Origin: an uncultured Gammaproteobacteria bacterium
Lineage (GTDB): Bacteria > Patescibacteriota > Microgenomatia > CAYXHB01
DNA: 48,458 nt
Assembly (NCBI GenBank): GCA_964444295.1
Contig: CAYUGO010000001.1
Coordinates: 1 to 48,458, forward strand
Direction of reading: 5' to 3'
Under the pieces are notes generated by a model. The model made no database searches, was not told the origin of the DNA, and saw nothing but the letters and a program-made list of their open reading frames with translations. Of the stretch, positions 5,709-21,562 are shown in pieces (positions within the stretch are counted from its first letter, which is position 1; the number at the start of each line of letters is the position of its first letter). The position numbers were made by a program, and so were the translations under genes.

Positions 5709-6452
5709 ATGATGTTTAATTGGAATAAAGGTTTGGTGATTAAAATAATAGTTTTGGTAGTTTTGGGATTAGGGTGGTGGTATACAGGCACGCAAATATC
5801 CAAAAAACCGCAATCTATTGTAGAAGGAGGGCGTAATTTGCCTGATTTTAAGGCGATTACCAGTTCGTATGCTGTTTTTTATACAACGGCTGATCTGATT
5901 GATAAAACTAACACTGTTGTGCAGTTTCCTTATTACTTCTCTACCCCACATCAACCTTTATTTTTGAATTTGCAAACGAATCCGGGAACAAATGAAGTAA
6001 TAATCTTAGTGGATCATCCAATTATAGAAAAAATTAAGACTTGGTCCAAAATTGTCAGCAAGGACTTAGTTTTGTATCAAAGGGAACAACAATTTAGCTC
6101 AATTGATAACTTTATTAATAGTCCCCCTAAATCGGGTAAAGTTGTGGCGGATTCTGCGTTGATATTTAATAAAAAAATCAAACCTGATGCTAACATCTTG
6201 TCCCTTGGCGAATGGACAAGCGAAACTGATTTTGATTATTTCTTAACTACTTACCATGAGCCGACAATAAAAGATTATTACAATATTGCAGAATTTAGTG
6301 TGGATGCTAGCGATGGGTATCTTAAAGAATGTGGAGAGGACAAAGATGATTGTCATCCAACGTTAACCTGGAAATTGGATATGCCAAATAGCGGAGATGA
6401 AACATTGTTTCTAGGTGAGGTACATGTTGATTTTCGTCAATCTTCTAAATAA
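5709..6452 (+). CDS. Hypothetical membrane-anchored protein
   Basis: N-terminal TM helix (LVIKIIVLVVLGLGWWY) followed by a soluble domain with no motif I recognise. Sits between gap and glgA in the same orientation. Confidence 0.5.
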   Translation: MMFNWNKGLVIKIIVLVVLGLGWWYTGTQISKKPQSIVEGGRNLPDFKAITSSYAVFYTTADLIDKTNTVVQFPYYFSTPHQPLFLNLQTNPGTNEVIILVDHPIIEKIKTWSKIVSKDLVLYQREQQFSSIDNFINSPPKSGKVVADSALIFNKKIKPDANILSLGEWTSETDFDYFLTTYHEPTIKDYYNIAEFSVDASDGYLKECGEDKDDCHPTLTWKLDMPNSGDETLFLGEVHVDFRQSSK

Positions 6453-6454
6453 AT

Positions 6455-7861
6455 ATGAAAGTAGTATCAATTGCTTCTGAAGTAGCTTCTATTCACAAAA
6501 CCGGTGGATTAGGTGATGTGGTGAGAGATCTGGCATTGGAATTGAGAAAAAACGATGTTGAAATTGATGTTTTGATTCCTATGTATTCGCATTTGGTAAA
6601 CGAAGAGAATATGAGAAACAAAATATGGGACGGAACGATTAATTTCGGAGGGGACTTGCGACAAGTATCTTTATATATGGTGAGAATCCCCAATACCGAT
6701 ATTAATTGCTATATGATTTATGAACCAAAAATAATATCAAATAATAGTTGTAACGATGTAGCTCGATATGGATTGCTAAGTAAGGTTGTAGTTAAATTAC
6801 TAATCGATAAGATAATAACTTGCGACCTGTTGCATTTGCATGACTGGCATTTAGGTTTATTACCATTAATTGCCAAGCATGAAGGATTATTAATTCCAAC
6901 TTTGTTAACGATTCATAATGTACTCTTTCAAGGCGATACTGAACCTACTATTCTTGACGATTTGGGAATTAAATGGGATTATTTGCCAGAACTCCTGTGG
7001 GACGTACAGGATGGTGACTTGAATTTTTTGATGCAAGGAATAATCCACAGTGATTATGTGACGACTGTTAGTCCAACGTATAAGAATGAAATTCTAAGTG
7101 AACCAAGTGCTGGGGGGATGAGTAGTGCCTTAATTAACAAAAATGATAAATTTAGTGGAATACTAAATGGGATAGATATAAATGTATGGAATCCAGAAAA
7201 TGATTTTTTCTTAGACTCAAAATTTAATATATCAAATTACAGGGAAGGGAAAGGTAGCGCTCGAAATCAGTTATCAAATTCACTCAAGAAAAAAATTGAG
7301 GAGGATGATATTTTGTTATCGTACATTGGCAGAGCTGATAGCCGTCAAAAAGGAATTGGGTTAATTCTTGATGCTGTGAATAATATGGGGCTACTGAATA
7401 GTAATCTGCGACTGGTTATGCTTACAGAGGGTGACGATCAGCTGGAAAACCAAATTATCCAAACTGCGAATCGATTTGATCGAATGGATGCATTTATAAA
7501 ATTTGATGATCAGCTAGCACATGTTTTGTATGCTGCAAGTGATATGTCGCTAATTCCATCATGGTATGAGCCTTGTGGTTTAGTACAAATGATGGCCATG
7601 CGATACGGAAGTGTACCCATTGCCAGAGCAACCGGAGGGTTAATTGATACGATTGATGACAAAGTTAATGGTTATTTGTTTGAACAATTTGAGGCGAGAA
7701 GTTTGTTAGAGTCGATAAAAATAGCCGAAGAAAAGTTTAGATTAGCAAATGAATGGGATGAAATTGTAAAAAATTGCATGGTGCATAATTGGAGTTGGGA
7801 GAATTCTGCGCGTGAGTATAAAGCCTTATATACTAGGATGATAGAGAAAAACTCATGTTAG
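6455..7861 (+). CDS. glgA: Glycogen/starch synthase (GT5, bacterial GlgA type)
   Basis: N-terminal SEVASIHKTGGLGDVV (KTGGL motif), HLHDWH, TVSPTY, and C-terminal PSWYEPCGLVQM...ATGGL. Confidence 0.85.
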   Translation: MKVVSIASEVASIHKTGGLGDVVRDLALELRKNDVEIDVLIPMYSHLVNEENMRNKIWDGTINFGGDLRQVSLYMVRIPNTDINCYMIYEPKIISNNSCNDVARYGLLSKVVVKLLIDKIITCDLLHLHDWHLGLLPLIAKHEGLLIPTLLTIHNVLFQGDTEPTILDDLGIKWDYLPELLWDVQDGDLNFLMQGIIHSDYVTTVSPTYKNEILSEPSAGGMSSALINKNDKFSGILNGIDINVWNPENDFFLDSKFNISNYREGKGSARNQLSNSLKKKIEEDDILLSYIGRADSRQKGIGLILDAVNNMGLLNSNLRLVMLTEGDDQLENQIIQTANRFDRMDAFIKFDDQLAHVLYAASDMSLIPSWYEPCGLVQMMAMRYGSVPIARATGGLIDTIDDKVNGYLFEQFEARSLLESIKIAEEKFRLANEWDEIVKNCMVHNWSWENSAREYKALYTRMIEKNSC

Positions 7862-7872
7862 CTGAGACATCA

Positions 7873-7901
7873 TTGACAGTTGAGTGTTTTTTGCCTAATA
7901 T
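7873..7901 (+). promoter_or_regulatory. Near-consensus sigma70-like promoter, TTGACA-N17-TAATAT, ahead of the surface-protein cluster
   Basis: TTGACA at 7873-7878, 17-nt spacer, TAATAT at 7896-7901. Lies 32 nt upstream of the ATG at 7934. Confidence 0.45.
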
Positions 7902-7933
7902 CGAATTTAGTTGAGGTTTATTGAAAACTAGAT

Positions 7934-8881
7934 ATGACAAAAAAAATATTTTATCTATTTGTACTCGTTTTGTTGGGTGGAGGATTTTTTTTAACTAATG
8001 GTGGAAAGGTGTACGCACAAGCAGGAAGGTCTCTGACAATTATTCCACCGAAGTTTGATGGCTTATTTGCTAACCCAGGAGATACTGCTGTTGAAACATT
8101 GAGGGTTAGGAACGACTCTGATACTCCTGTAACATATGGAATTAAGATTGAGGACTTTACAACCAGCGGTGAAGAGGGACAGGTTGTGTTGGAAGAAGGG
8201 GAAAGCGACAAGAATTTTTCTTTAGCCTCATGGATTGAGATGGAAACCAGTGACATAGTCTTACAGCCACTTGAAGAAAGAACGATATCTTTTGTAATTA
8301 ACGTTCCACGTAACGCAGAACCAGGCGGACATTATGCTTCGATATTGTTTCAGTCGACAGCTGAACAAATCCCTGGAAATGCTGCCGTAGCACAAAGAGT
8401 TGGATCGTTAGTGTTGCTAAGAGTTTCGGGGAACGTTGATGAGAATGCTGAGTTGCTGACATTTTCTACTCCTAATTATCAAAAAAGCGGACCAATAACT
8501 TTTTCGATGAGAGTTGAGAATAAGGGAAATGTCCACGTGCAACCTCAAGGCACAATTATTATCAAAAATATGTTTGGGAAAAAGGTAGCTGAAATTCCAT
8601 TGGATAGCAGAAATGTTTTGCCAGGTGCTGTAAGAAAAATGGATACGGTTTGGAATCAAGAAAGATTACTTGGAAGATATACTGCCACACTTATTTCTCA
8701 ATATGGAGAAGGTGCTAAGAAAAACACGCTATCTGCTGCAATTAATTTTACGGTTGCATCACCAGTAGCAATCGTACTCATTGTTGTCGGAACTATCGCA
8801 GTGCTGGGTATCTTGGTTTTTATGATTGCCGGATGGGGACGAATGTCTAAGGCAATGAAAATGATTGCTACAGGGAAATAG
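7934..8881 (+). CDS. Secreted Ig-fold surface protein with a C-terminal TM anchor (DUF916/DUF3324-like)
   Basis: Signal peptide (LFVLVLLGGGFFL...VYAQA). Two beta-rich modules (LRVRNDSDTPVTY; FSMRVENKGNVHVQPQG). C-terminal helix VAIVLIVVGTIAVLGILVFMIAGW followed by basic residues. The family assignment is from memory. Confidence 0.5.
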   Translation: MTKKIFYLFVLVLLGGGFFLTNGGKVYAQAGRSLTIIPPKFDGLFANPGDTAVETLRVRNDSDTPVTYGIKIEDFTTSGEEGQVVLEEGESDKNFSLASWIEMETSDIVLQPLEERTISFVINVPRNAEPGGHYASILFQSTAEQIPGNAAVAQRVGSLVLLRVSGNVDENAELLTFSTPNYQKSGPITFSMRVENKGNVHVQPQGTIIIKNMFGKKVAEIPLDSRNVLPGAVRKMDTVWNQERLLGRYTATLISQYGEGAKKNTLSAAINFTVASPVAIVLIVVGTIAVLGILVFMIAGWGRMSKAMKMIATGK

Positions 8882-8956
8882 TTCTGGGTTTAGTTCTTCG
8901 TTAATAACTTGTTAGAATAAAGAGTAAGTTTATTGATAAAATGAGTTACTACCTTT

Positions 8957-10192
8957 ATGATTCCAATAAGAAAATTAATCTCATCAATATTAATTTGCTT
9001 AATCGGACTGGTAGTATTTATGAATGCTGGGGATGAAGTTTTTGGTGTAGGGAATTTGCAAGCAGTCAAGGATACAATCGGAAGCTCTTCGCCAGGGGCA
9101 ACAAATATTGCCCATGAAGTGAAATTCCGGTTGCCAATTAATTCCCTGGCAATCACTAGCACTGACTACATTACCATTGATTTAGGTAATTTTTCTGATG
9201 TATCGGTGGCTACAAATATTACTGGAATTTATGGAGGCACGCCTGTCTTTAGTCTAGTCGGAAAGGAAGCGAAAATAACAGGCATTATTGTTGACCCTGG
9301 GGTTGAACTTACAGTTACGGGAATTACGGCAACGAATCCCGCATCTTTGGCTAATTTTGGAGTTACGATAATTATTTCTGAAGATATTAATGGATTAATC
9401 GTGAAAAATATTGGTACGGTGATTGCTTCTGGGAGTGATGGCTCGTTTAGCGTGACTGCTTCGATTGATCCGCCTGTGGCGTCACTTGTGATTTCAGGAT
9501 ACACATCTCCTGGGACTTTTGTGACATTTACCAATAATGGAGCTGTAATTGGCACCGATTCAGCTGGTCCCACTGGATTCTTCAGTCAGGTTTTTACAGG
9601 ACTGCAGCCCATGACTCACTCTCTGAGGATTTATGGTGTGGATCAGAGTTTACGAGCAACTGCGCCGATTTTTTTGGAAATATATACACCGATTTATCAA
9701 GAAACTACGATCAGCGATATTATTTTGCCCCCGACGATAGAGCTTGATAGTAATGTGGTGATACGAGGAGATGATTTGGTGGTTAGCGGGTCTGCTGTTC
9801 CCAACGGGGATATTAGTCTATTAACTGAGTCATATTTACGCAACTACTCAACTACTGTAGATGTTAATGGAAATTGGAATTATACAATTGCCAACACCAT
9901 TGACTATTTGCCTGGAGATTATCGTGCTTATGGGATTGTGCAATCTGGTTCATTACAAAGCCTTGCAGGAACCGCTTTAGGGTTTACAGTTACATCACAA
10001 GCGACGACACCAACTCCGGCAAATTGTAACATTGCTCAAGCAGATTTGAATTGCGATACTCATGTAAACTTATTTGATTTTAGTATTTTGATGTATTACT
10101 GGGGGACAACTCAACCAGCTGGAGATATCAATAATGATGGGGTGGTGAACTTATTTGATTTTAGTATCATGATGTACTACTGGGGGACATAG
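8957..10192 (+). CDS. Secreted Ig-like-repeat protein with a C-terminal dockerin module
   Basis: Signal/TM segment (ILICLIGLVVFMNA), beta-rich Ig-like modules, then two 22-aa segments, DLNCDTHVNLFDFSILMYYWGT and DINNDGVVNLFDFSIMMYYWGT. Both have the EF-hand-like D1-N3-D5-N9-D12 calcium-loop pattern typical of dockerins. Confidence 0.7.
   Translation: MIPIRKLISSILICLIGLVVFMNAGDEVFGVGNLQAVKDTIGSSSPGATNIAHEVKFRLPINSLAITSTDYITIDLGNFSDVSVATNITGIYGGTPVFSLVGKEAKITGIIVDPGVELTVTGITATNPASLANFGVTIIISEDINGLIVKNIGTVIASGSDGSFSVTASIDPPVASLVISGYTSPGTFVTFTNNGAVIGTDSAGPTGFFSQVFTGLQPMTHSLRIYGVDQSLRATAPIFLEIYTPIYQETTISDIILPPTIELDSNVVIRGDDLVVSGSAVPNGDISLLTESYLRNYSTTVDVNGNWNYTIANTIDYLPGDYRAYGIVQSGSLQSLAGTALGFTVTSQATTPTPANCNIAQADLNCDTHVNLFDFSILMYYWGTTQPAGDINNDGVVNLFDFSIMMYYWGT
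10043..10189 (+). repeat. Tandem duplicated dockerin segments (2 x 66 nt, separated by 15 nt)
   Basis: Segments at 10043-10108 and 10124-10189. Their last 42 nt (10067-10108 versus 10148-10189) are identical at 39 of 42 positions by direct comparison. Confidence 0.8.
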
Positions 10193-10249
10193 TAAGACCC
10201 AATTGCAGAAAGGGGCATTGATTTGGTACGCTTGAGAGTAGTTATAATT

Positions 10250-11980
10250 ATGGCAAGAACTAAACAGTCTTTAAGCACAAGTACTCGCAATGGAAGTAGT
10301 TTTTATCGGAAGCTATCTCCTGTTAAGAAACACGTCAACAATAGGAGGAAAACAGTGAGTAGAAACGATGAATACGATCATCTACTGGCAGATCTTAAAG
10401 ATGAATTAACTGAAAAATTTGAGGTGGAACTTCGAGAAAAATTAGCAGAGGCGACTGCCAAAATTAATAAGCAGAAATCAGAAGTTAAGTATAGGATGAA
10501 TGAAAAATATGACAGTGATGATGAGTATGAAACTGAAAATTCTCGACAGCACCGACATCCATCTTGGCCTTGGGAGCCAGTTGTCCACAGTCATCAGCAG
10601 GATAATTATAGAAAGGCAGTAAGTCGCGAAAATAATTACGAAGAGGAAGAACCACGAAATGATTGGCGTCAATTAACACAATATAGAAATGATCCGCCAG
10701 CTTATAAATATGAGGATGAAGAATACTCATCACCTAAACTTCGCCGACCCATTGACGTTAGACAACCCAAATATGAGAGGAGCGAAGGCAATCCACGTTA
10801 CGAGCATCATGCAATGCAAGAACATAGACAAAGCGGTCATGCTGAAAATTCTAAGCCAGCGAAGTTTGAGGCTGAGTTAGAAGCACTGAAAGATAAGGTT
10901 GGGTTCTTGGAAAAGGAGTTACTGGCTTCGTATCAAAGAGAAACTGGTCTAAAAACAAGCGTCGAAAAATTAGAACAAGAGGTGGTGAGCAGACAAGCCG
11001 GATTAAGACAACAATTAGATACATTGCGAAAAGATGTCGTACCAGCTACAGAGCCAGCCAAAGATGAAAATAAATTGACTTCTCTATCAATGCAATTGAC
11101 GCAGGTTATGCAGTCAATGAATACAATGATGGATGATGACCCAGATGGAAGTGTGAAAGATGTTCCTAAGGCTGTTATGCCTATTGCCGTTGATGAAGTA
11201 GCTGAAGAGGTTAGCAAGAAACAAGAAGATAAAAAAAAAGAAGTTAGCCCTAAACCTATAGAAAAAGTTAAAGAATCGGGTAAAAGTAAAAAGAAAAAAG
11301 TAATGTGGCTATTTGCTTCGCTGGTATTGGTAATTGGGGGAGTTGCAGCTGGAGCATTTTTCTTTTTAAATGGACAAACAACGGTTGATCCGGAGCTTAT
11401 CAAAAATTACTTGCCTGAGGGTCAGAGCCAATCTGAACAAGCTACTCCGACGAGTCAGGCAGAAGTCGCTCCTGAAATTGCTGATAGCGAAAATGGTTCG
11501 GTACAGGGAGCAGCAACCAGCACATCACCACCTGGTAATAATTTTGAACAATCTAATGCCGACGTGGCATATGGCGAGACACGCTGGGACACGCACAAAA
11601 ACCCCCAACTGGGGGTTCAGTTTGATTATCCGAGTAATTCGGCTAATGTGGTGAGAACTGATACGAGTGTCACGGTGCTGCGTAAGACAGGATATATATT
11701 TAAAATTCAGTATGTTAAAACTGCTTTGGATTTGAAGGATTACTGGAATCAAATTAAGGCTAGAAATTTGGTTTATAAATCAAGCGAAACTACTTTTCGT
11801 GATCTTCCTGCACTTTTTTTGGAGTTAGATGATCAATCAGATTATCCAGGGAATCGATATTTAGTTAAAAAAGATGATGTTATTTATGATATATGGTATG
11901 CGATTAATTCTAGTAATTTATCGGATGATGACGCCAAAAGAATTGACATTATTCTTAATTCTTTCAAATTTTTGGAATAA
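10250..11980 (+). CDS. Bitopic protein: long charged/coiled-coil cytoplasmic N-terminus, one TM helix, extracytoplasmic C-terminal domain
   Basis: ATG at 10250 (MARTKQ...); the ORF opens at 10223. About 370 aa are rich in E/K/R/Y with coiled-coil stretches (LEALKDKVGFLEKELL..., KLEQEVVSRQAGLRQQL). A K-rich patch precedes the TM helix MWLFASLVLVIGGVAAGAFFFL. The C-terminal domain carries NPQLGVQFDYPS. Confidence 0.6.
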   Translation: MARTKQSLSTSTRNGSSFYRKLSPVKKHVNNRRKTVSRNDEYDHLLADLKDELTEKFEVELREKLAEATAKINKQKSEVKYRMNEKYDSDDEYETENSRQHRHPSWPWEPVVHSHQQDNYRKAVSRENNYEEEEPRNDWRQLTQYRNDPPAYKYEDEEYSSPKLRRPIDVRQPKYERSEGNPRYEHHAMQEHRQSGHAENSKPAKFEAELEALKDKVGFLEKELLASYQRETGLKTSVEKLEQEVVSRQAGLRQQLDTLRKDVVPATEPAKDENKLTSLSMQLTQVMQSMNTMMDDDPDGSVKDVPKAVMPIAVDEVAEEVSKKQEDKKKEVSPKPIEKVKESGKSKKKKVMWLFASLVLVIGGVAAGAFFFLNGQTTVDPELIKNYLPEGQSQSEQATPTSQAEVAPEIADSENGSVQGAATSTSPPGNNFEQSNADVAYGETRWDTHKNPQLGVQFDYPSNSANVVRTDTSVTVLRKTGYIFKIQYVKTALDLKDYWNQIKARNLVYKSSETTFRDLPALFLELDDQSDYPGNRYLVKKDDVIYDIWYAINSSNLSDDDAKRIDIILNSFKFLE

Positions 11981-12022
11981 TAAGTTTGAGGATCATTTGT
12001 TGTAACATATAATGCAATTACT

Positions 12023-12544
12023 ATGAAGTTATTGAAATTGGGATTAGTTGGAGCAATTACGATTATTGTAATTGGAATTGTTTGGAAATATGGAACTAAA
12101 GGCAAAGTCTCGGGTGTATACACTGGACCACCAGGGACATATGAAATAGAAGTGCCCGAAAGAATTAGTTCGACTGATCCATTTGTAATCAAATTAAATG
12201 TTGATACCAAGGGTCAGAGTATAAATGCAGTTGGCTTGCACTTGAAGTTTGCTACCAATCGACTGCAAATACTTAATATGGATACAACCAAGTCTTTTTG
12301 TGAACTGTATCCAGAAAATAGATATGACAATCAAACAGGTGAGATCAAAATTTCATGCGGATTGCCATCACCGGGATTTAATGGTCAAGGAACACTAGCA
12401 GTAATAACCTTTGAACCACTGAGTGTAGGGACGACTGAGTTACAAGTACTTGAGGATAGTGCGATATTGCTAAATGACGGAAAAGCTACAAATATCTTGA
12501 AAGAATATCCTATTCGAGATGTTTTGATAGTGGGGAATCTTTAG
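12023..12544 (+). CDS. Membrane-anchored cohesin-like domain protein
   Basis: N-terminal TM helix (LGLVGAITIIVIGIVW). Then a roughly 140-aa beta domain, FVIKLNVDTKGQSINAVGLHLKF...GEIKISCGLP...GTLAVITFEPLSVGTTELQV, which resembles the cohesin pattern. Confidence 0.6.
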   Translation: MKLLKLGLVGAITIIVIGIVWKYGTKGKVSGVYTGPPGTYEIEVPERISSTDPFVIKLNVDTKGQSINAVGLHLKFATNRLQILNMDTTKSFCELYPENRYDNQTGEIKISCGLPSPGFNGQGTLAVITFEPLSVGTTELQVLEDSAILLNDGKATNILKEYPIRDVLIVGNL

Positions 12545-12587
12545 GGTGATAGTTGGCGATAATCAGGTCATTCGTGTAAAGTAAATT

Positions 12588-13814
12588 ATGTCTATGTCTC
12601 ATCGGATATATGTGGTTTTGCTAAGCGTGGTTGTTTTTTTGATGTCAAGCAAAAGCGCTTGGGCAGCACCATATTTTTATATTGATGGACCAGCGTCAAT
12701 CACGGTAGGGCAACCAGAGAATTATTATTTGCGCATTAATCCTGATGGAAATGAGCTGAATACTCTTCAGGCCGTATTTAACATTCCTAATGGTTATTTT
12801 TCAAACGCACGTATCGATATTACAGACACACGTTCGCCCACCCCCACTCCAATCTATTTAACTCCCCCACCAACTCCAACTCCCCAACTAGTTCACAGAT
12901 GTGATATTTATATCAAACCAAGTACTGTCCCAGATTCTAATGGAAATGTGATTGTTTCTTGTGGATTCACAACTCCGAATACTCCTGCAGAAGGAGCATT
13001 TGTAGCACGAATAGTATTATCTGCCGCAAATACAGGAAATATAAGCTTAAATTTCGATAATGCTCAGAGCCAATTTATTGGGGGGCGCGGCAATTCAGTA
13101 ACAGCAGGAGTTTCTATAAATAAGCCTATTACTATTGCTGGAGTCGGAGTTACTTTAACGCCGACACCGACTCCAACTCCAACTGGGACGATTATTCCAA
13201 CTCCAACCAATACACCTACCGCCTCACCGACACCGATAGCAGGGCCTACCACTGTAACGCCAACTACAGGAGCTAGCGGAGGTGACTCTTATGGACTTAA
13301 TGCTAGTGATGTAAATTTTGTGACTATCGCACCCTTCCCAACCCCTACGACTGGGGACAATGCTCCACTTGAGGTGGTTGAAGAAAATAACACTGTGCCC
13401 ACGCCGCCACCAATTACTCCAAGACCCCCTGCAACTCCTTTTCCGACTCCTAACCCAGACGGAAGCACACAAGACAGTGGTGAGGTTCTGGCGGTGCAGT
13501 CGATACGGGATCTTTTGATTCCTGGCAAATCAAGTGCTGATAAGAATGTTGTTTTATTTAATTTTATTTCACTAATAACGTTATTTAGCATTATTATTGT
13601 AATTATCTGGCGGATAATAATGCTAAAAAGAAGAAATAAACTTAAACAAAGACATATAGCTGATCTTATCAATGGTGAGCTAGCGACATTAGAAACCAAG
13701 TTAACAGTACTTGAGGAGAAAGATGGTGCCAAAAGTTTCCAGGATGAGTTTGAAAAAACTCTTGATAATATACAACAGGAATTAAATGTTGATGAAAAAA
13801 AGAAAACTGAGTAG
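12588..13814 (+). CDS. Cohesin-like domain protein with Pro/Thr linkers, a C-terminal TM helix and a cytoplasmic coiled-coil tail
   Basis: Signal peptide (VVFLMSSKSAWA). The domain is paralogous to the 12023..12544 product (LQAVFNIP..., RCDIY...VSCGFT..., ARIVLSAANTGNISLNF). PT-rich linkers follow, then TM helix FISLITLFSIIIVIIW and a KRRNKLKQR...coiled-coil tail. Confidence 0.6.
   Translation: MSMSHRIYVVLLSVVVFLMSSKSAWAAPYFYIDGPASITVGQPENYYLRINPDGNELNTLQAVFNIPNGYFSNARIDITDTRSPTPTPIYLTPPPTPTPQLVHRCDIYIKPSTVPDSNGNVIVSCGFTTPNTPAEGAFVARIVLSAANTGNISLNFDNAQSQFIGGRGNSVTAGVSINKPITIAGVGVTLTPTPTPTPTGTIIPTPTNTPTASPTPIAGPTTVTPTTGASGGDSYGLNASDVNFVTIAPFPTPTTGDNAPLEVVEENNTVPTPPPITPRPPATPFPTPNPDGSTQDSGEVLAVQSIRDLLIPGKSSADKNVVLFNFISLITLFSIIIVIIWRIIMLKRRNKLKQRHIADLINGELATLETKLTVLEEKDGAKSFQDEFEKTLDNIQQELNVDEKKKTE
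13152..13460 (+). repeat. Pro/Thr-rich low-complexity coding tract (linker)
   Basis: Encodes TLTPTPTPTPTGTIIPTPTNTPTASPTPIAGPTTVTPTTG...PTPTTG...TVPTPPPITPRPPATPFPTPNP. The DNA shows reiterated ACTCCA/ACACCG units. A shorter PT tract lies at about 12838-12890, inside the cohesin-like domain. Confidence 0.8.
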
Positions 13815-13852
13815 ATTGATATCTTGTATTACTTGGTACAATAGCTTTAGTT

Positions 13853-14968
13853 ATGGATAGAAGTTTTAGTAAAATTGGCTTGGGTTTTTTGACGATGTTA
13901 TTGATTACGTTAAATGGGTGTGCGAATAATGTGAATGAGCCAAAGGAACCCATTACTCAAGAATTAACTCAAGAAGAAAATGAGGTTAAAAGCATAGACA
14001 ATATTATTAAAGATTCTTCAGTGATCGCTGTACGCAGATCTGATCGTTTGTTGTTGGTTAATCCCGAGAATAAAGAGTTCGTGGATTTATATCACTTGCA
14101 AATTGATGAAGTGCCATTAAGTAATGAATTGTTTGATTTTAAAGTTAGTCCTAATCACAAATGGATAATATGGTATTCGTCGCGTAAAGGATTGTTGGCT
14201 TTAGATATTGAAAAGAAAGAAGTTGAGGTTATTGCAACTGTAACTGAATGGTTTAATAGAAATCCGTATTTTGAATTGGACGACGAAAATGATGTTGTTT
14301 ATTGGATAGATGATAATGGTGCGGTATTAAACGAATTGGAATTGGATACGAAAAATCTTAATCCAATTCCAATTCCGTATCCCTTTGGAAACATTTTTAA
14401 AGTATCGCCAGATAATGAGAGATTTCTGTACATTACAGGATTTAATAATGAAAATTCAGCACGACCGAGATTTATGTTTTCCGATAGAAAAGGTAATCTT
14501 GATTCAACTTTTGCCAGTCAAGTTGAGCTGTCGAGTAGATTCACGGTGGAATGGAGTCCAGACAATGAGGGGATTTTGACAATTTTTGATGATCAGGTTT
14601 GGTTTTATCCTTACAATAATCCCAGTATTCCAACGAGATTTGTCCAGTATGAAAGTGGAGTTGGGGCAAGAGATATAAGAAAGTTCGGGAATGAAATATT
14701 TGTACTGGATTCCGAAGGTTATTGGCATAGATATGATTATGTAAGCAAAAAGGAAACGGCTAGAATCCCTACCGATATTGCTAAAGAATTAAGGAAACCT
14801 GTTTTTTATCCATGGGCAGATCAAATGCTTTTGATAAGTGAAAACTCCCAGGATGAAGATAATAAATTCCAAAGACTATGGTTATCAAATTACAGAGGCC
14901 AGAAAAAAATGGTATTATCGCACTTTGGGGAGGCGCAGATAGCGACGTTTAATGAACAATTGGATTAA
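13853..14968 (+). CDS. Putative lipoprotein with PD40/TolB-like beta-propeller repeats
   Basis: Signal sequence ending in LITLNGC (lipobox-like, with a non-canonical Asn at -2). Repeated SPD/SPN motifs (VSPNHKWIIW, VSPDNERFLY, WSPDNEGIL). Confidence 0.55.
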   Translation: MDRSFSKIGLGFLTMLLITLNGCANNVNEPKEPITQELTQEENEVKSIDNIIKDSSVIAVRRSDRLLLVNPENKEFVDLYHLQIDEVPLSNELFDFKVSPNHKWIIWYSSRKGLLALDIEKKEVEVIATVTEWFNRNPYFELDDENDVVYWIDDNGAVLNELELDTKNLNPIPIPYPFGNIFKVSPDNERFLYITGFNNENSARPRFMFSDRKGNLDSTFASQVELSSRFTVEWSPDNEGILTIFDDQVWFYPYNNPSIPTRFVQYESGVGARDIRKFGNEIFVLDSEGYWHRYDYVSKKETARIPTDIAKELRKPVFYPWADQMLLISENSQDEDNKFQRLWLSNYRGQKKMVLSHFGEAQIATFNEQLD

Positions 14969-15007: not shown

Positions 15008-17263
15008 TTAATTGGGTAAACTATTTAATTCCTGGAGTAATTCTTGTGCTGGTTTGTATTCGGAATTATATTTGAGGATGTAATTTAACTCTTGTTTGCT
15101 TTCATTAATGTAGCCTCCGCTTTGATACAGTTGGGCGAGTGTAAATCTGGCATCTGGAGATTGAGGGTTTCGAAAGACTGCCTTAAGAAGAGTTTGATAA
15201 GCTTGATTGAGAGCTTGTGAGTCTTGGTTGGTTTTGCTAGTTTCGAATTCTGCTTGGAACTGGGTCAAAATTTCTTGAGAAGTGGGGCTCGTGTTCCCCG
15301 GCTTGTAGCGCGGATCTCCACTATATTGGTCAACTTGATCTAGTAATTTGCGTGGTTGAGATACAAGTGAATTAAATTTGATGGCAGCTTCTTGGTGGAA
15401 ACGGCCGGCTTGAGGATAACCAAATTTGCTGTAAAGAAATCCTAATGTCATGTGTTTATAAGCAAAATAATCTTTGAGACCTGTTTGGAAATAGTTCTTA
15501 GAAGGGATACTTTGGGATAATAAATCATTAGATATTTTGTATAATTCTGGATCGTCGGTTAATGTGTCTGGAACAATAGTCGCAACTTGATATAGATAAC
15601 CTCGAGGAATTAAATAGAAAGGGTTAGCATCAAAGCCCATGTAATCTGAATAAAATCCATCAGGTTCCGTCAGATAAGTAACCCGATGAGATACATTCCA
15701 ACTTATTAGATCACTGGCAAAAAAAGGATTATATCCATAAGGATAACCTTGATATTGAGGATTTCTTGTTAGGAAATATTTAAGATAATAATTGTTCTTG
15801 ATAAGTACAGTAACGTCAGGGCGATAATTTTCGACGAGTTGCTCATAAAGTAAGCTATAGCAAGATATATCAGAAAAACATATAACAACTGAGTTTGGTA
15901 AAGCAGTGTCTAGCATGGTGTGTGCATAATCTCTAAGTATTGTATTATTACGCTGAATTGCCGTGTCTTTATTTGATTGCACTTGGTAAAAAATACTTAG
16001 AATTATTACTAAAGCTAAAATATTTGTTGATGAAATTCTATGCTTCTTGGAACTTTGTGAGAAAAGTTTGACCATGCTTACAACCCCTGAAACTGTAATT
16101 AATATAAAGCTGATATGTCCCAGCATATATTGCCGATGTGAGATTCCGACTCCCAGTCTGTACTCCAAGTTATCAGAACTATATTCGGGAACTCCCATAT
16201 AAGTTCCAAATAAAATGCCTGAAAATATAAAAAAACTTAGGATTGTAATATAAATTGATTTAGGGAGAACTTTCCAGCTAGCAATTGAACCAGTGATAGT
16301 TAGGGCAATAACTGGCCAGGTGAGTTGGTTGATTAGGAAGCCTAAATATGCCATTAGGCCACGAATATAGAAATCTATTGATTTAAGGTCTAGATAGGCA
16401 GCAACTTCTCTTTTCTGGTCTAAAATTACACCTGTATAGTCTCTCCGAGCAATCAAACGCCACCAACCATTAATAGTTTGCTCGAAAACCCATGACATAT
16501 CTGCTTGATTGCTATTGAGATAAAACAATAGAAGGTTAGGGATTAGCCAAGCTAAAAATGCAACTAAGATCGCCGGCAACAATTGTCTGGTGATAAGTTT
16601 TTTGGTATTAATTTTTGCTCTTAGCGACCAATAAATCATGATAAATGCAATGAACACACTAGGGTATAAGAGAATGAATGTATGAACTGTTGATAAACCA
16701 AGTCCTAGCAATCCCCAGATTAAAAACCATAACTTGGATGGTCCAAAATTGTTGGAATTAAGAACGCTTATTTGCCATTTGATGATTGTGAAAATGAGAA
16801 TCGAAGCAAATAAATTATTTAGAGCACCTACTTCAACAATGCCTCCATATAACCAAAAAATCGCAGAGAAAGTAAGTAGTAAACTAGTGGCGATTGCAAT
16901 TAGTTGTGATTTAATCGTTGCCTGGGGATTTATAAATTTAAGTATCTGGAGGCCACACATTGCCATGAAACCAACCGCAAAAGCGTGCGTAGTCATGGAA
17001 AGAATATGAGCGCGGAAAGCCATGCTAGTGCCAATTGGGAGCAATGTAAATAGCTTGGTGATTAAAACTACCAATGGGTATCCTGAGGGATGGGCGACAC
17101 CAAGAAGATATCCTACTGTAGCTATTTCATCCGAATCACCATACCCGATATTAGTTCTGGGGGCTGAATAATAATAAGTAGCAAACGAAATTAATACCAC
17201 AAATATAAGACCATAAAGAGGAATACGTTTAGGGTTGGAGAGAAAAGAAACAAGATTCCTCAT
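15008..17263 (-). CDS. DUF2723-family (TMEM260-like) GT-C membrane glycosyltransferase with a C-terminal TPR-like domain
   Basis: First-loop motif GYGDSDEIATVGYLLGVAHPSGYPL, at least 10 predicted TM helices, and a soluble C-terminal region with TPR-like repeats (ALNQAYQTLLKAV..., FTLAQLYQSGGY...). Its start overlaps the upstream paralog's stop by 4 nt (17260-17263). Confidence 0.7.
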   Translation of the reverse strand: MRNLVSFLSNPKRIPLYGLIFVVLISFATYYYSAPRTNIGYGDSDEIATVGYLLGVAHPSGYPLVVLITKLFTLLPIGTSMAFRAHILSMTTHAFAVGFMAMCGLQILKFINPQATIKSQLIAIATSLLLTFSAIFWLYGGIVEVGALNNLFASILIFTIIKWQISVLNSNNFGPSKLWFLIWGLLGLGLSTVHTFILLYPSVFIAFIMIYWSLRAKINTKKLITRQLLPAILVAFLAWLIPNLLLFYLNSNQADMSWVFEQTINGWWRLIARRDYTGVILDQKREVAAYLDLKSIDFYIRGLMAYLGFLINQLTWPVIALTITGSIASWKVLPKSIYITILSFFIFSGILFGTYMGVPEYSSDNLEYRLGVGISHRQYMLGHISFILITVSGVVSMVKLFSQSSKKHRISSTNILALVIILSIFYQVQSNKDTAIQRNNTILRDYAHTMLDTALPNSVVICFSDISCYSLLYEQLVENYRPDVTVLIKNNYYLKYFLTRNPQYQGYPYGYNPFFASDLISWNVSHRVTYLTEPDGFYSDYMGFDANPFYLIPRGYLYQVATIVPDTLTDDPELYKISNDLLSQSIPSKNYFQTGLKDYFAYKHMTLGFLYSKFGYPQAGRFHQEAAIKFNSLVSQPRKLLDQVDQYSGDPRYKPGNTSPTSQEILTQFQAEFETSKTNQDSQALNQAYQTLLKAVFRNPQSPDARFTLAQLYQSGGYINESKQELNYILKYNSEYKPAQELLQELNSLPN

Positions 17264-19494
17264 AGAACAATAGACGGAGAAGACTGGTTAGGAGAAAATG
17301 ATTGCAATTCTTCAAGAGCTTGGACTGCGATTTCATTTTGAGGATCGAGCACCAATACATTTCGATACTCAATAATGGCTGAAGGAATTTGATTGATTTC
17401 TTTAAATGTTTGGGCTGCTGCCAGTCTGGCTTTGACTTGATCAGGATAGACAGTCATAGACCCCACTGCTAATTTGTGAGCAACATCAAGACGACGTTTG
17501 TCTTTCCATTGATCAATTAATTTTAGGAATTCATCTAGCACTATTGGTTTTTGGGTTGCAGCAAATCTGGAATCTGGGTGACCTGACTCGATAGAACTCC
17601 TGACTTGATCAAAATTGGTCTCTATCGGTTCTTGCAATTGAAGATAATCATTGAGGCTCCCTGCTACGTTAAGTTCTTGACGAGATTGGTCTCGATAACC
17701 AGCTCTAAGATAAATTACGCTATTAAACTGGTAAGTCCTGATTACATTACTTAAGAAATAAAGTCTCATCCTATCACTGCTAGGAATGGGAGTAGCCATA
17801 ACTGACTCTGATAAATTAAAGTCGCTATCTGGGAATTCACTTGGTTGTGTTCTTACTAATTCTCCATAGATGCCGTAAGGCACGTAATAAGTAAAGCCTT
17901 CGTTTATTCCTAAGAGATGATAATAGTATTCGGAAATTTCTACCGCGTAGACTGGTCTTTTATCGATGCTCCAGGTAATGTAGTCAAATGTTCTAAAGGG
18001 ATCGTCTGCGTAGAGGAAATTACGAAGATCAGGCTGAGCGGCAAGTTGTTTGGCAACTAAGGGATAAGCGCGAGGTAGAATAATCACATCAGGGCGGCGG
18101 CGATTTACGGATTGTTCATACATTAACGCAAAACAGCTGGTGTCAGTAAAACACGTGACTAGTGAGTTCGGCTTGACCTGGTCTAGAATCTTGGAATAAG
18201 TTTGGGAAACAAATCTGAAATTGCGGAGATTTGATAGCGGATACTGGAAATATATGGTAATAGTTTGGGAAATTATAATAATTGAAAAAATTACGATCGC
18301 AGTTTTGTAAACTTGAACATTGAGAACTTGAAGCCCAAGCTGAAGTCGATTAATAATAAAATTAAGTCCGAGGGAAAATGTTAAGGGCCAAAAAACATAA
18401 CCCATCAAGAGCAATCTTTGCGCGTTGGCTTGAGAGCCAAAATGATTTGGCCAACCAAGAATACCTGCAAAAAAAGGACCTGTTATTAGAACAGTTGTTA
18501 AATATACGATGAATAAGGGGATGTTTTTGCGTGCCATGACATAAAAACCAAATAGGGATGTGATAATCACAAAATATCCAAATTGATTGGCAATTTCTGT
18601 CAAATATTTAGGGAGGAATTTAAAAATTGCTTCCATATTAATCTGAGGCAAATACCCATTAATAACCTGTCCTGTTTCGGGGATGACCCCACTAAACTCA
18701 GATCTGACAACATGCCTTAGGAAACCTGAAAATGTAGGATCGAAGTTCCAAGAAAAAAATGCATTTTGAGTATTTTGAAAGAATAAAATTAGATAGCTAA
18801 ATGAAATTGTTAGAAATGAAATCAAAATAAGCTGTACCCAATAGCGAAATTTAATTTGTTTGAAGTTTAAAATAACTGCTAACAATAATAAGGGGCTAAT
18901 TAAAACAATTGTGTGGTGGTGGCTGAGTGATAAACCAAGAAGAACTGCATTAACTATCCAAAATCTTAATGAAGTTGGTTTATATATGATGCTAATTAGA
19001 CTTCTATATATTAAAGCAGTTGTTAATAACACGTGGAGCGCAAATACTTCGGTGATTGTACCGTATAACCAAAATAATTGAGTTATTCCAATAGCAACGA
19101 CTGAAATAAATGAGGTTACTTTATGCGCAGTTGACTTATTTAATAAGTTGGATGTGTCGAAATATTTAAGTAAATGTCTTATTGCTTTATAAATTAAAAC
19201 AAGTGTGGTGATGGAAAAAATTGTACTTAATAAATGACCTTTGAATGCAATTGATCCTGCTATAGGCAACTTAATCCACAAACTTAAAATAAGCATATAC
19301 AAAGGATAACCAGGTGGATGAGCGACTCCGTTTTGGTATGCAACTGCAAGAAATTGATCTGAATCAGAATAGCCAACGTTTACCTGGGCGATTGTTGTGA
19401 TGTAGAGAATGGAGAAAACGATTATTATAAGCGTCACCCAAAAGTTATCTTTATTTATGAGGCGGTTTATCATATTGAACAGCAGTATATACAA
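17260..19494 (-). CDS. DUF2723-family (TMEM260-like) GT-C membrane glycosyltransferase with a C-terminal TPR-like domain (tandem paralog)
   Basis: Motif GYSDSDQFLAVAYQNGVAHPPGYPLY, polytopic TM core, C-terminal TPR-like region (AAAQTFKEINQIPSAIIEYRNVLVLDPQN). An alternative start lies at 19473 (MINRL...). Confidence 0.7.
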   Translation of the reverse strand: MYILLFNMINRLINKDNFWVTLIIIVFSILYITTIAQVNVGYSDSDQFLAVAYQNGVAHPPGYPLYMLILSLWIKLPIAGSIAFKGHLLSTIFSITTLVLIYKAIRHLLKYFDTSNLLNKSTAHKVTSFISVVAIGITQLFWLYGTITEVFALHVLLTTALIYRSLISIIYKPTSLRFWIVNAVLLGLSLSHHHTIVLISPLLLLAVILNFKQIKFRYWVQLILISFLTISFSYLILFFQNTQNAFFSWNFDPTFSGFLRHVVRSEFSGVIPETGQVINGYLPQINMEAIFKFLPKYLTEIANQFGYFVIITSLFGFYVMARKNIPLFIVYLTTVLITGPFFAGILGWPNHFGSQANAQRLLLMGYVFWPLTFSLGLNFIINRLQLGLQVLNVQVYKTAIVIFSIIIISQTITIYFQYPLSNLRNFRFVSQTYSKILDQVKPNSLVTCFTDTSCFALMYEQSVNRRRPDVIILPRAYPLVAKQLAAQPDLRNFLYADDPFRTFDYITWSIDKRPVYAVEISEYYYHLLGINEGFTYYVPYGIYGELVRTQPSEFPDSDFNLSESVMATPIPSSDRMRLYFLSNVIRTYQFNSVIYLRAGYRDQSRQELNVAGSLNDYLQLQEPIETNFDQVRSSIESGHPDSRFAATQKPIVLDEFLKLIDQWKDKRRLDVAHKLAVGSMTVYPDQVKARLAAAQTFKEINQIPSAIIEYRNVLVLDPQNEIAVQALEELQSFSPNQSSPSIVL

Positions 19495-19540: not shown

Positions 19541-21562
19541 CTACGTAGGTTTGATAATAATTGCTGTTCTTGAAGGCAGATAAATTTTGACGCTGCCTGG
19601 CTGATTATGAAATTGACCTTCTACATACGGGTAACCATTGGAAGTATCAATACGTCCAAATCCTCCTAATTTCAAATCGTCAGTGTTAAATATAATCTCA
19701 TATTGACTGGCCGATGGAACTCCAATCTGATAGTCAGGGTATGATTGGTTTGGATGAAGATTGACGATCAACACATGTTCATTTTTTTGAGCGATGAGAC
19801 ATTTGTGAGCTTCGTGTATGTAAAGTAAGTTGGGAAATTCTTGAGAAAGAATTTGAAAATTAATATCGAGATTCATAAGCTGTTGATCAAAATTATTGAG
19901 ATATTGATAACGGAGTTGAGGGTTATCAACCAAAGACCATTGGCGTCTGGCGTAGTGATATGAGTAATTATTACCTGCCCGAGGGAAGTCCACCCATTCG
20001 GGATGACCAAACTCATTGCCAATGAAATTAAGCCAGGATTCTCCACCGAGGAAGTATGTCATTACACGGATAATTTTGTGCAGGGCAATTCCTCTGTCTA
20101 TAACAATATCTTTGGTATCAATATCCATGTTGTGATACATATGTGAGTCCATCAACCAAAAAGCAATCGTTTTATCCCCGACTAATGACTGATCATGCGA
20201 CTCAACATAGGCAATATGCGATTCATGTCTACGGCGGTTAGTAAGCATTTGGTATATATCCTCTATGGACCAGTGATCATCCACTTTATCGCGTAATAAT
20301 TTTATCCAGTAATCAGGAATTCCCATAGCCAAACGATAGTCAAACCCAAGTCCGCATTCTTGCACAGGGCGGGCTAACCCGGGTATCCCTGAAACTTCTT
20401 CAGCAATTGTGATTGCAGGCTTGGTATGAGCAACTTCATTTGCTAGTTGAAGATAAGCAACGGCATCTTTATCGACATTGTTATTAAAGTAATCATCATA
20501 ACTAGCAAACGATCTATGTCCATGATCGAAGTAAATCATACTTGTAACACCATCGAATCTTAGACCATCAAAACGGAACTCCTCCTGCCAATATCTAACA
20601 TTACTAAGAAGGAAACGGAGAACTTCGAGCTGTCCATAATCGAAAAGCCGAGTATCCCAGTCAGGGTGAAGCCCTTTGGCTCCTGCATGGAAATATTGAC
20701 CCTCTGTCCCGTCAAAGTTATTTAGACCTTCATCATAGTTTTTTACTGAATGAGAATGAACAATATCTAATAAGACGGAAATTCCTAAATTATGACAAGC
20801 ATCAATTAGCTGCTTAAGATCATCTGGGGATCCAAAGTAATTACTGACAGCAAAAAAATTACTGACTTGATATCCAAAGCTTCCATAGTAAGGATGGTGC
20901 ATGACTGCCATGAGTTGAATGGCGTTATAACCTTGGTTATGAATACGGGGCAAAATTAGCTGAGTAAATTCGTGGAAAGAACCAACCTTACCTTCTTCTT
21001 GTGCCATTCCAATGTGTGCTTCATAAATACGGAGCGATTTGGGGACAGATGGTGATTGATGTTGCCATTGATAAGGTGTGTCAGGAGAGAAATGTTGACC
21101 GGTGAAACTGCCATCAGGGAGTTTGGATATGCTTTTGATATAAGCTGGGATACGATCACGAGCTTCGGATTGGGTGAGGACATGAACCTTAAGATGACTT
21201 AGATGTTGAAGAACTGATCCTTGGTCTGTATCAGGGAGAAAAATACTCCAAACTCCATTTGAGTCCCGTAACAATGGATGGCTTGATCTGTCCCATTGAT
21301 TAAAATCACCAATTAAATTTAGTTGCATGGCACCCGGGGCCCATTCTCGATACCACCAGCCTGATCGGTCTTGAGATTGTCCGCGATTAAAACCAAGATA
21401 CTCATGTCCATGACTGGCATTTTCGATTGATCCGTAAGCTTTGATTAGTCGGCTACGAACCCAGCCGTAATGATTGTTACGATCTTCAAGATTCTGTTTA
21501 TATGGTTCTAGCCAAGGATCCAGCTGAATTAATTTCCCGGGATGATACATAATTGTCATCAT
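19541..21562 (-). CDS. glgB: 1,4-alpha-glucan branching enzyme, eukaryote-like type (GH13 subfamily 8-like)
   Basis: N-terminus LDPWLEPYK...WYREWAPGA...GDFNQWD resembles GBE1-type enzymes. GH13 regions DIVHSH, DGLRFDGVTSMIY, IAEEVSG, YVESHDQ and GNEFGHPEW are all present. Confidence 0.88.
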   Translation of the reverse strand: MMTIMYHPGKLIQLDPWLEPYKQNLEDRNNHYGWVRSRLIKAYGSIENASHGHEYLGFNRGQSQDRSGWWYREWAPGAMQLNLIGDFNQWDRSSHPLLRDSNGVWSIFLPDTDQGSVLQHLSHLKVHVLTQSEARDRIPAYIKSISKLPDGSFTGQHFSPDTPYQWQHQSPSVPKSLRIYEAHIGMAQEEGKVGSFHEFTQLILPRIHNQGYNAIQLMAVMHHPYYGSFGYQVSNFFAVSNYFGSPDDLKQLIDACHNLGISVLLDIVHSHSVKNYDEGLNNFDGTEGQYFHAGAKGLHPDWDTRLFDYGQLEVLRFLLSNVRYWQEEFRFDGLRFDGVTSMIYFDHGHRSFASYDDYFNNNVDKDAVAYLQLANEVAHTKPAITIAEEVSGIPGLARPVQECGLGFDYRLAMGIPDYWIKLLRDKVDDHWSIEDIYQMLTNRRRHESHIAYVESHDQSLVGDKTIAFWLMDSHMYHNMDIDTKDIVIDRGIALHKIIRVMTYFLGGESWLNFIGNEFGHPEWVDFPRAGNNYSYHYARRQWSLVDNPQLRYQYLNNFDQQLMNLDINFQILSQEFPNLLYIHEAHKCLIAQKNEHVLIVNLHPNQSYPDYQIGVPSASQYEIIFNTDDLKLGGFGRIDTSNGYPYVEGQFHNQPGSVKIYLPSRTAIIIKPT

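Follow-up and report, generated by a model that had tools for sequence, protein, structure and literature searches.

The window analyzed here is a whole contig of 48,458 bp (CAYUGO010000001.1) carrying a cluster of six co-directional open reading frames (ORFs) on the + strand, designated g1 to g6, which encode a WxLIP-family protein, a secreted stalk protein of immunoglobulin (Ig)-like domains that ends in a dockerin, a bitopic protein, two membrane proteins with one cohesin domain each, and a lipoprotein. Four of these genes (g1, g2, g4, and g5) correspond to a WxLIP-dockerin-cohesin-cohesin (W-D-C-C) unit that recurs across the Patescibacteria and may anchor the Ig stalk to the cell. The intergenic gaps between g1 and g6 ranged from 30 to 75 nucleotides (nt), and no terminator-like site was detected in them. 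A sigma-70-like promoter, TTGACA-17-TAATAT, was located at 7873 to 7901 (+ strand), 33 nt 5' of the g1 start codon, with 10 of 12 matches. Promoter-like sites in the region were not above chance (24 observed versus 23.1 expected from shuffles); both hexamers were nevertheless identical in two related loci, L006 and L001 (the L001 g4 protein being 67% identical), despite a diverged spacer, and the site is thus likely a real promoter. The initial annotation, made from the letters and their ORFs, had placed six co-directional genes behind a near-consensus promoter and had described a canonical two-segment dockerin in g2, a long charged cytoplasmic part in a bitopic g3, paralogous cohesin-like domains in g4 and g5, an N-terminal anchor for g4, and a PT linker, transmembrane helix, and cytoplasmic tail for g5. 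All of these features were recovered.

The stalk gene, g2 (8957 to 10192, + strand), encodes a signal peptide, an N-terminal domain, Big_6 Ig-like domains, a TPTP linker, and a C-terminal dockerin, with Pfam scores above the cutoff for both Big_6 (30.9 bits) and Dockerin_1 (28.8 bits; cutoff, 22.9 bits). The two-segment type I dockerin (PF00404; 10043 to 10189, + strand) occupies the extreme C-terminus of the protein, the last 57 residues consisting of two segments, DLNCDTHVNLFDFSILMYYWGT (from nt 10043) and DINNDGVVNLFDFSIMMYYWGT (from nt 10124), that are almost identical. Their calcium loops read D-L-N-C-D-T-H-V-N-L-F-D (nt 10043) and D-I-N-N-D-G-V-V-N-L-F-D (nt 10124), and the segments DLNCDTHVNLFD and DINNDGVVNLFD, each followed by FSI[LM]MYYWGT, form a duplicated ~22-residue EF-hand-like loop plus helix. 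No further dockerin loop motif of this kind occurred in the six-frame translation of the window. A word-index search with the 59-aa dockerin by itself yielded just two short fragments. Among 63 g2 homologues, Dockerin_1 was matched by 54 (E value of 1e-3 or better) and Big_6 by 44, while the N-terminal domain of g2 was lineage specific and confined to the eight nearest loci. One or two dockerin segments terminated 65 of 68 g2 homologues. The consensus of the family dockerin is DLNxDGxVNLxDFSI[LM]xYYW[TG]G, present twice, and the D/N ligand positions 1, 3, 5, 9, and 12 were invariant or at least 90% conserved across 32 family sequences. A profile built from these 32 dockerins matched, across both segments, the solved dockerins 5nrm_B, 2y3n_B, 2yik_A, 1daq_A, and 2mte_A (E values of 2e-8 to 2e-5), which come from Acetivibrio cellulolyticus, Bacteroides cellulosolvens, and Clostridium thermocellum. 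A dual binding mode is known for type I dockerins; the near-identity of the two g2 segments would provide the sequence basis for such a mode, and g4 and g5 could be alternative partners.

The first of the two cohesin genes, g4 (12023 to 12544, + strand), encodes a single cohesin domain behind an N-terminal signal-anchor and a tether of ~12 residues; this N-terminal anchor was the only one indicated by hydropathy, on which the topology calls for all module proteins were based. When the AlphaFold2 model of g4 (predicted local distance difference test [pLDDT] score, 85) was compared with the PDB using Foldseek, the top 25 places were all taken by cohesins, with 2vo8 as the best match (E value, 6e-8; template modeling [TM] score, 0.78) and 2xdh also recovered. 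Identity to solved cohesins was just 10 to 16%; phmmer searches of PDB sequences with g4 and g5 yielded noise only, and a 60-member g4-family profile matched no solved cohesin by sequence. Because these sequence searches of the PDB were empty, the tie between g4 and the solved cohesins depends on Pfam-positive relatives and the fold search. When the g4-family profile was searched exhaustively with HMMER, 5,367 cluster representatives were returned at an E value of 1e-3 or better, many of them single-domain proteins of 165 to 195 amino acids (aa) and some multi-domain. One match to this profile, P0026 (E value, 5.5e-75), contained nine Pfam Cohesin domains (E value, 1.4e-82) together with a dockerin, and 19 of 60 single-domain relatives of g4 passed Pfam Cohesin at an E value of 1e-3 or better. 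The fold matches of the model, the reach of the family hidden Markov model (HMM) to Pfam-positive multi-cohesin proteins, and these Pfam-positive relatives together indicate that g4 is a divergent yet genuine cohesin. The best multi-domain match to the g4 profile was found on a metagenome contig without taxon (L086:1-14820; Ga0616349_0002182), a scaffoldin-like system that includes a protein of 2,276 aa in which nine cohesins are combined with Big_7 and fn3 domains and a dockerin forms the C-terminus; beside it are encoded a GH44 enzyme and two small proteins of one cohesin each, and two cupredoxin-like genes also adjoin it.

The second cohesin gene, g5 (12588 to 13814, + strand), encodes a signal peptide, a cohesin at residues 29 to 184, a proline- and threonine-rich (PT-rich) linker with 46% P plus T, a juxtamembrane motif, a transmembrane helix, and a charged cytoplasmic helical tail of ~60 aa. 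BLASTP detected no similarity between g4 and g5. Using hhalign, residues 26 to 159 of g5 were aligned with the g4 family domain at 97.2% (E value, 3e-11), so the N-terminal domain of g5 and g4 are distant paralogues whose relationship is visible only at the profile level. The top six Foldseek matches of g5 were likewise all cohesins (E value, 8e-7; target TM scores, 0.66 to 0.76). By these matches, g4 and, with moderate model confidence, the g5 domain have the nine-stranded flattened beta-barrel (jelly-roll) fold of cohesins. Within the cohesin, a 40-residue PT-rich loop insert (residues 78 to 118; 12819 to 12941), disordered in the model, was found only in the window protein and in its 82%-identical relative P0008. 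Among g5 orthologues, the best-conserved part was not the cohesin; it comprised the extracellular juxtamembrane motif, LEVVEEDNTVP...TPRPxATPF...GEVLAVQSLRELLIPGKSxADKTVV (13350 to 13620, residues ~255 to 345), together with the transmembrane helix and the start of the cytoplasmic helix. This juxtamembrane-plus-tail module was present only in the eight nearest loci.

At the head of the cluster, g1 (7934 to 8881, + strand) encodes a signal peptide, DUF916/PGBD and DUF3324-like Ig domains, and a C-terminal transmembrane helix, placed within residues 265 to 305 by hydropathy. It was first described as an Ig-fold protein with a C-terminal membrane anchor, of which the anchor and the Ig domains stand; rather than a generic Ig protein, the product is by sequence a full-length WxLIP (PGBD plus HBD plus transmembrane helix). 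The protein scored 28.8 bits against Pfam WxLIP_PGBD (cutoff, 27.3 bits), a match shared by 17 of 31 g1 homologues, and the g1 family profile matched the solved Enterococcus faecium EfmWxLIP1 (9i25_C and 9i1y_A; E value, 5e-9) over chain residues 23 to 253, spanning both domains. Pfam WxL was matched by none of the six module proteins, none of the 63 g2 homologues, and none of the small upstream proteins of distant loci. In many distant Patescibacteria loci (L055:1312-6805, L021:3-6201, and L015:2635-7470, among others), a secreted protein of ~200 to 230 aa precedes the WxLIP gene, often together with a giant one (more than 1,500 aa), an arrangement which recalls Southlakia SEML1_0628 to SEML1_0626, whose small protein structurally resembles WxL. 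The corresponding Southlakia DUF916 locus (SEML1_0623 to SEML1_0628) is non-essential and is annotated without cohesin or dockerin.

To describe how widely this arrangement is conserved, two independent samplings were used. For the genome sample, one genome per GTDB species was scanned with conserved g4-family peptides, which returned 80 loci whose ORFs were called and then searched with iterated HMMs. For the metagenome sample, contigs were scanned with the dockerin alignment, and the best 80 loci were kept. Cohesin ORFs were present in 80 of 80 genome loci, with a mean of 2.2 per locus, and each of these proteins contained a single cohesin; 127 of the 174 ORFs carried both an N-terminal hydrophobic segment and a C-terminal transmembrane helix, and the median tail beyond the last transmembrane helix was 51 residues. 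A dockerin ORF accompanied them in 70 of the 80 loci, always on the same strand and within 3 kb (median gap, 23.5 nt), and several of the 10 loci lacking one were cut by contig ends. WxLIP ORFs occurred in 56 of the 80, and the order WxLIP-dockerin-cohesin-cohesin was found in 40, close variants accounting for most of the remainder. Results from the metagenome sample were similar: where the flank was long enough, a cohesin ORF started within 3 kb downstream of the dockerin in 48 of 53 loci, and a WxLIP ORF ended within 1.5 kb upstream of it in 37 of 39. The complete dockerin-bearing ORFs in these metagenome loci measured 256 to 590 aa (median, 350 aa), none exceeding 700 aa and none being a large enzyme; the Ig-domain profile matched ORFs in 74 of the 80 loci, and the dockerin carriers were mostly g2-like and nearly all inside the module. 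Almost no dockerin outside the module was found within 10 kb on either side of a cohesin gene in the 80 genomes. The pairing of dockerin and cohesin genes is close to obligate within the sampling bias discussed below. The gene order, for which the initial annotation had suggested a survey of relatives, is conserved in part, in that relatives keep the order as W-D-C-C, while g3, g6, and the g5 tail are limited to the nearest loci; the conserved unit indicated by sequence comparison is these four genes and not six. As far as the analysis covered the outcomes that the initial annotation had listed as refuting, none of them was observed. At the end of the module in L040:12312-13058 and L046:12302-13048, 248-aa ORFs matched both the cohesin and the dockerin HMMs, giving an adaptor-like protein and the order W-D-C-C-C-D.

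Every informatively named genome locus belonged to the Patescibacteria, including Beckwith-, Berkel-, Sacchari-, Uhr-, Giovannoni-, Falkow-, Woese-, Kaiser-, and Jorgensenbacteria, Paceibacterota, and others, such that the module ranges from Microgenomates to Saccharibacteria and Parcubacteria-type lineages. The window contains no tRNA genes and no Rfam matches, and its lineage placement leans on these named relatives instead. Several TPA_asm records of metagenome-assembled genomes titled "uncultured Gammaproteobacteria" or "Pseudomonadales" (L006, L007, L011, L012, L022, and others) also carry the module and match Patescibacteria-titled loci best; these titles are probably placeholders or wrong taxonomy.

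The remaining genes of the cluster have a much narrower distribution. The bitopic protein g3 (10223 to 11980, + strand) comprises a charged cytoplasmic part of ~350 aa (18% D/E and 19% K/R), one transmembrane helix at residues 358 to 385, and an extracellular domain of ~190 aa with a weak PsbP_2 match (E value, 9e-4) below the cutoff. Its ORF opens at a TTG codon at 10223; the Joint Genome Institute (JGI) gene call of 576 aa and the L001 orthologue (MARTK...) indicate that translation probably begins with the ATG at 10250, which would give a 576-aa protein. The last gene, g6 (13853 to 14968, + strand), had been annotated as a PD40 beta-propeller lipoprotein. Its lipoprotein nature is borne out by Cys23, which lies in a lipobox-like context and is invariant in eight homologues. 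The PD40 assignment is not, as no PD40 match was found in Pfam at an E value of 1 or better; the eight homologues gave sub-threshold matches to assorted beta-propellers (best E value, 0.001), and g6 is possibly a beta-propeller. Homologues of g3 were confined to L006 to L013, and those of g6 to L006 to L012. Upstream, g0 (5709 to 6452, + strand) encodes a 247-aa protein with an N-terminal membrane anchor and without a Pfam match, homologues of which were found in the nearest loci only (the L006 to L013 group). They lie directly 5' of the g1 homologue in L008, L009, L011, and L013 without glgA between, whereas in the window, L006, L001, and L010 the glgA gene (6455 to 7861) separates g0 from g1, as if inserted into the module; judged from this arrangement, g0 is probably an extra lineage-specific module member. 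Neither g0 nor the N-terminal domain of g2 was retained as a hidden WxL-like partner of g1, since hhalign comparisons with the small pre-WxLIP proteins of distant loci stayed below 1% and Pfam WxL was not matched. By their distribution, g0, g3, g6, and the g5 tail appear to be accessories of one lineage (Microgenomates/Beckwithbacteria-like).

Beyond the cluster, the upstream flank contains the glycolysis and glycogen genes PGK, GAPDH, and glgA, and glycogen genes bracket the module, with glgA on one side and a branching-enzyme-like gene with CBM48 (19541 to 21562) and an alpha-amylase-family gene (21628 to 22908) on the other; the same bracketing of the surface module was observed in L001. 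Two tandem TMEM260-like GT-C glycosyltransferase genes (protein O-mannosyltransferase-like; 15008 to 17263 and 17260 to 19494, - strand; Pfam E values of 6e-22 and 1e-23) are convergent with the module, and both are kept beside it in the eight nearest loci. It is possible that these enzymes glycosylate PT-rich linkers or Ig domains of g2 and g5.

Taken together, we interpret the module as a dedicated non-cellulosomal cohesin-dockerin anchor for the Ig stalk, being the local version of a Patescibacteria-wide surface module, and we place the probability of this interpretation at roughly 60%. According to this model, g1, g2, g4, and g5 would be exported by Sec. The g4 cohesin would lie very close to the outer surface of the cytoplasmic membrane, while the g5 cohesin would be borne on a long PT-rich and probably glycosylated stalk, in a protein that crosses the membrane to its cytoplasmic helical tail. 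The g2 dockerin would fold around two calcium ions and plug into the cohesin of g4 and/or g5, and in doing so would tie the g2 Ig stalk non-covalently to the cell. Anchored alongside, g1 might, by analogy with Firmicute WxLIP, bind peptidoglycan and/or stabilize a partner beta-sandwich, and the whole assembly may act as an envelope scaffold or an adhesin stalk in these monoderm, host-dependent bacteria. We infer this dedicated anchor from the identities of the module proteins, the near-obligate adjacency of their genes, the placement of the dockerin at the extreme C-terminal end of an Ig protein that is not an enzyme, and the membrane anchoring of every cohesin. Sequence conservation within the g4 family adds support. 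In canonical cohesins, strands 8-3-6-5 form the dockerin-binding sheet, and in the g4 family, strands 3, 5, 6, and 8 with their loops were more conserved (2.40 bits) than strands 1, 2, 4, 7, and 9 (1.71 bits; Mann-Whitney p, 6e-4), with the caveat that strands were numbered by sequence order only and are unchecked in three dimensions. If so, the module is probably a basic, undescribed way in which Patescibacteria fix a protein stalk to their surface.

Besides this caveat on strand numbering, several observations weigh against such an anchor. Gene adjacency indicates shared function and not contact. Of the two Pfam profiles proposed for checking the module in the initial annotation, Dockerin_1 passed on g2, but Cohesin (PF00963) fell below its threshold on g4 (19.5 bits versus a cutoff of 24.1 bits) and did not match g5. 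The AlphaFold2 model of g5 has low confidence, with a whole-protein pLDDT of 60.7, which is attributable to the linkers, and values of 62 to 88 in the domain, and the positive-inside rule gives no clear orientation for the anchor of g4. In addition, both samplings were seeded by conserved peptides of the subfamily itself and are hence biased toward g2-like and g4-like genes, so other dockerin proteins may be encoded elsewhere in the sampled genomes. Indeed, Southlakia carries an unrelated, essential dockerin-domain protein of 927 aa, SEML1_0315; it was rejected as a g2 orthologue because of its length and its solitary genome position between a hydrolase gene and a tRNA gene.

A bolder extension of the dedicated anchor, in which W-D-C-C would serve Patescibacteria universally as an organelle of attachment or scaffolding that spans the envelope, can be entertained only tentatively. 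In it, a calcium-dependent joint would couple the Ig stalk (in contact with wall, S-layer, or host) to bitopic cohesins, whose conserved cytoplasmic tails (median over the phylum, ~50 aa) could pass force or signal inward; the organelle would replace the sortase or S-layer homology (SLH) anchoring of other monoderms, and the same cohesins could also be the receptors to which other dockerin proteins bind, among them the essential one of Saccharibacteria.

Among the competing explanations, the one that survives best is a WxL/Csc-type peptidoglycan-associated complex, which we regard as unlikely. Here, g1 would donate a beta-hairpin to a partner beta-sandwich (g2 or another protein), and the cohesin-like and dockerin-like modules would be structural or bind other things, the dockerin possibly being a calcium-stabilized glycan- or host-binding module. 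This explanation draws on the match of g1 to true WxLIP over both domains, on its position directly upstream of the dockerin gene in the 37 of 39 loci mentioned above, and on the small secreted and giant proteins that precede WxLIP in many distant loci as in Southlakia. Firmicute WxLIP has been proposed to bind peptidoglycan and to stabilize its partner by hairpin insertion, with the hairpin predicted to enter WxL domains (PMC10599100), and a glycan-targeting idea has been raised for the Southlakia dockerin (Wang et al.; PMC10633639). However, a WxL domain was absent from g2, its 63 homologues, and the small upstream proteins, and hhalign linked none of these small proteins to the g2 N-terminus or to g0. 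Moreover, this explanation does not account for the dockerin gene being followed in every case by at least two cohesin genes, nor does it show why conservation falls on the putative dockerin-binding strands. A WxL/Csc-type role of g1 and a dedicated cohesin-dockerin anchor can coexist.

More improbable still is a minimal cellulosome-like display platform, in which g4 and g5 would be receptors for several dockerin enzymes or adhesins encoded elsewhere and g2 would be one client of many. Scaffoldin-like proteins with up to nine cohesins and a dockerin are indeed found by the g4 profile, one of them beside a GH44 gene on the unassigned metagenome contig; two loci possess the adaptor-like cohesin-plus-dockerin ORF, and in Saccharibacteria a further dockerin-domain protein is encoded at another site of the genome. 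Against these stand the lack of a second dockerin in the 48-kb window, the near absence of other dockerins within 10 kb of the cohesin genes in the 80 genomes, the absence from these genome loci of any protein with more than one cohesin, and the metagenome carriers of this dockerin type, all of 256 to 590 aa, mostly g2-like, and nearly all within the module. Patescibacteria are not known as plant-cell-wall degraders, which also counts against a display platform. The weakest explanation, a likeness at the level of the fold only (through convergence or very old divergence) among unrelated envelope genes sharing an operon, could appeal to the sub-threshold Pfam Cohesin scores of g4 and g5, the 10 to 16% identity, and the failure of even the 60-member profile to match a solved cohesin, but is largely refuted by the strong reach of the g4-family HMM to P0026, the 19 of 60 relatives passing Pfam Cohesin, the above-cutoff dockerin whose profile matches solved dockerins at an E value of 2e-8, and the cohesins occupying the top 25 (g4) and top 6 (g5) places in the fold searches.

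The ultra-small Patescibacteria account for much of the diversity of bacteria and live in attachment to other microorganisms, yet the construction of their envelope and the anchoring of structures at their surface are poorly understood. In this context, the module offers a concrete hypothesis, namely, that membrane cohesins serve as sockets for an Ig stalk that carries a dockerin at its tip, beside a WxLIP protein, and it would widen cohesin-dockerin biology beyond the display of enzymes to what is probably a core function of the envelope. Moreover, the pairs are small and self-contained (a 135-aa cohesin and a 60-aa dockerin), which makes them suitable for in vitro work without culturing the organism. 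Since Wang et al. (2023) reported the essential dockerin-domain protein SEML1_0315 in Southlakia and speculated on glycan targeting but named no cohesin partner (PMC10633639), membrane cohesins of the g4/g5 type are candidate receptors for that protein.

The module shares features with three known systems and is distinct from each. With the WxL/Csc clusters of Firmicutes, which comprise WxLIP (DUF916 plus DUF3324 plus a transmembrane helix), small and large WxL proteins, and an LPXTG protein, it has in common the three-part architecture of g1 and an operon whose secreted products at the surface are believed to assemble into a complex (PMC10599100 and PMC1534035). Such a cluster is defined as at least one WxLIP plus at least two WxL proteins within four genes (Hassan, Chaudhuri & Williamson 2023), and the module falls outside this definition because it contains no WxL proteins, their place by WxLIP being occupied by a dockerin protein and membrane cohesins.

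The likeness to cellulosome anchoring, in which type I/II dockerins are used with SLH- or sortase-anchored scaffoldins (C. thermocellum OlpC/SdbA and Ruminococcus flavefaciens ScaE), lies in a calcium-type two-segment dockerin that would plug into a cell-bound cohesin. Enzyme dockerins from the cellulosomes of C. thermocellum, A. cellulolyticus, and B. cellulosolvens were matched by the family dockerin profile, and the cohesins of OlpC (4dh2) and ScaE (2zf9) were among the fold matches of g4. In contrast to these, the module has no multi-cohesin scaffoldin, carbohydrate-binding module, dockerin enzymes, or SLH or LPXTG anchor and is anchored by transmembrane helices, and its dockerin differs from those of cellulosomes in the DFSI[LM]xYYW[TG]G C-terminus and an inter-segment linker of 5 to 9 residues. 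Because it has neither a scaffoldin nor dockerin-bearing enzymes, the module does not fit the definition of a cellulosome. The initial annotation had reached the same view from the absence of a dockerin-bearing enzyme in the window, with which the sampled loci agree, as they do in never showing more than one cohesin per protein.

A further likeness is to non-cellulosomal cohesin-dockerin pairs, a recognized class (Peer et al. 2009, as cited in PMC9012536 and PMC10066038), in which single modules join proteins non-covalently outside plant-cell-wall degradation, as in the Clostridium perfringens GH33/GH84 toxin complex (2vo8, 2jh2, and 2w1n), Archaeoglobus fulgidus (2xdh), and anaerobic methanotrophic (ANME) archaea. 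The C. perfringens GH33 cohesin 2vo8 and A. fulgidus 2xdh are also the nearest structural neighbors of g4. In this module, unlike in those pairs, the cohesins are integral membrane proteins by predicted topology (g4 with its N-terminal anchor, and g5 with a C-terminal transmembrane helix and cytoplasmic tail), the dockerin is carried on a non-enzymatic Ig stalk, while the C. perfringens modules are carried on secreted glycoside hydrolases, and the genes stand in fixed order in one operon, which includes a WxLIP gene and is conserved across a superphylum. A full-text search on dockerin, cohesin, and DUF916 in Patescibacteria, the candidate phyla radiation (CPR), and Saccharibacteria found no description of this operon within the literature searchable, the nearest mention being SEML1_0315, whose architecture differs from that of g2. 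The earlier suggestion that the architecture is not a described system was hence too strong as regards non-cellulosomal pairing itself, which is a known class, whereas the W-D-C-C operon of Patescibacteria seems undescribed within that literature.

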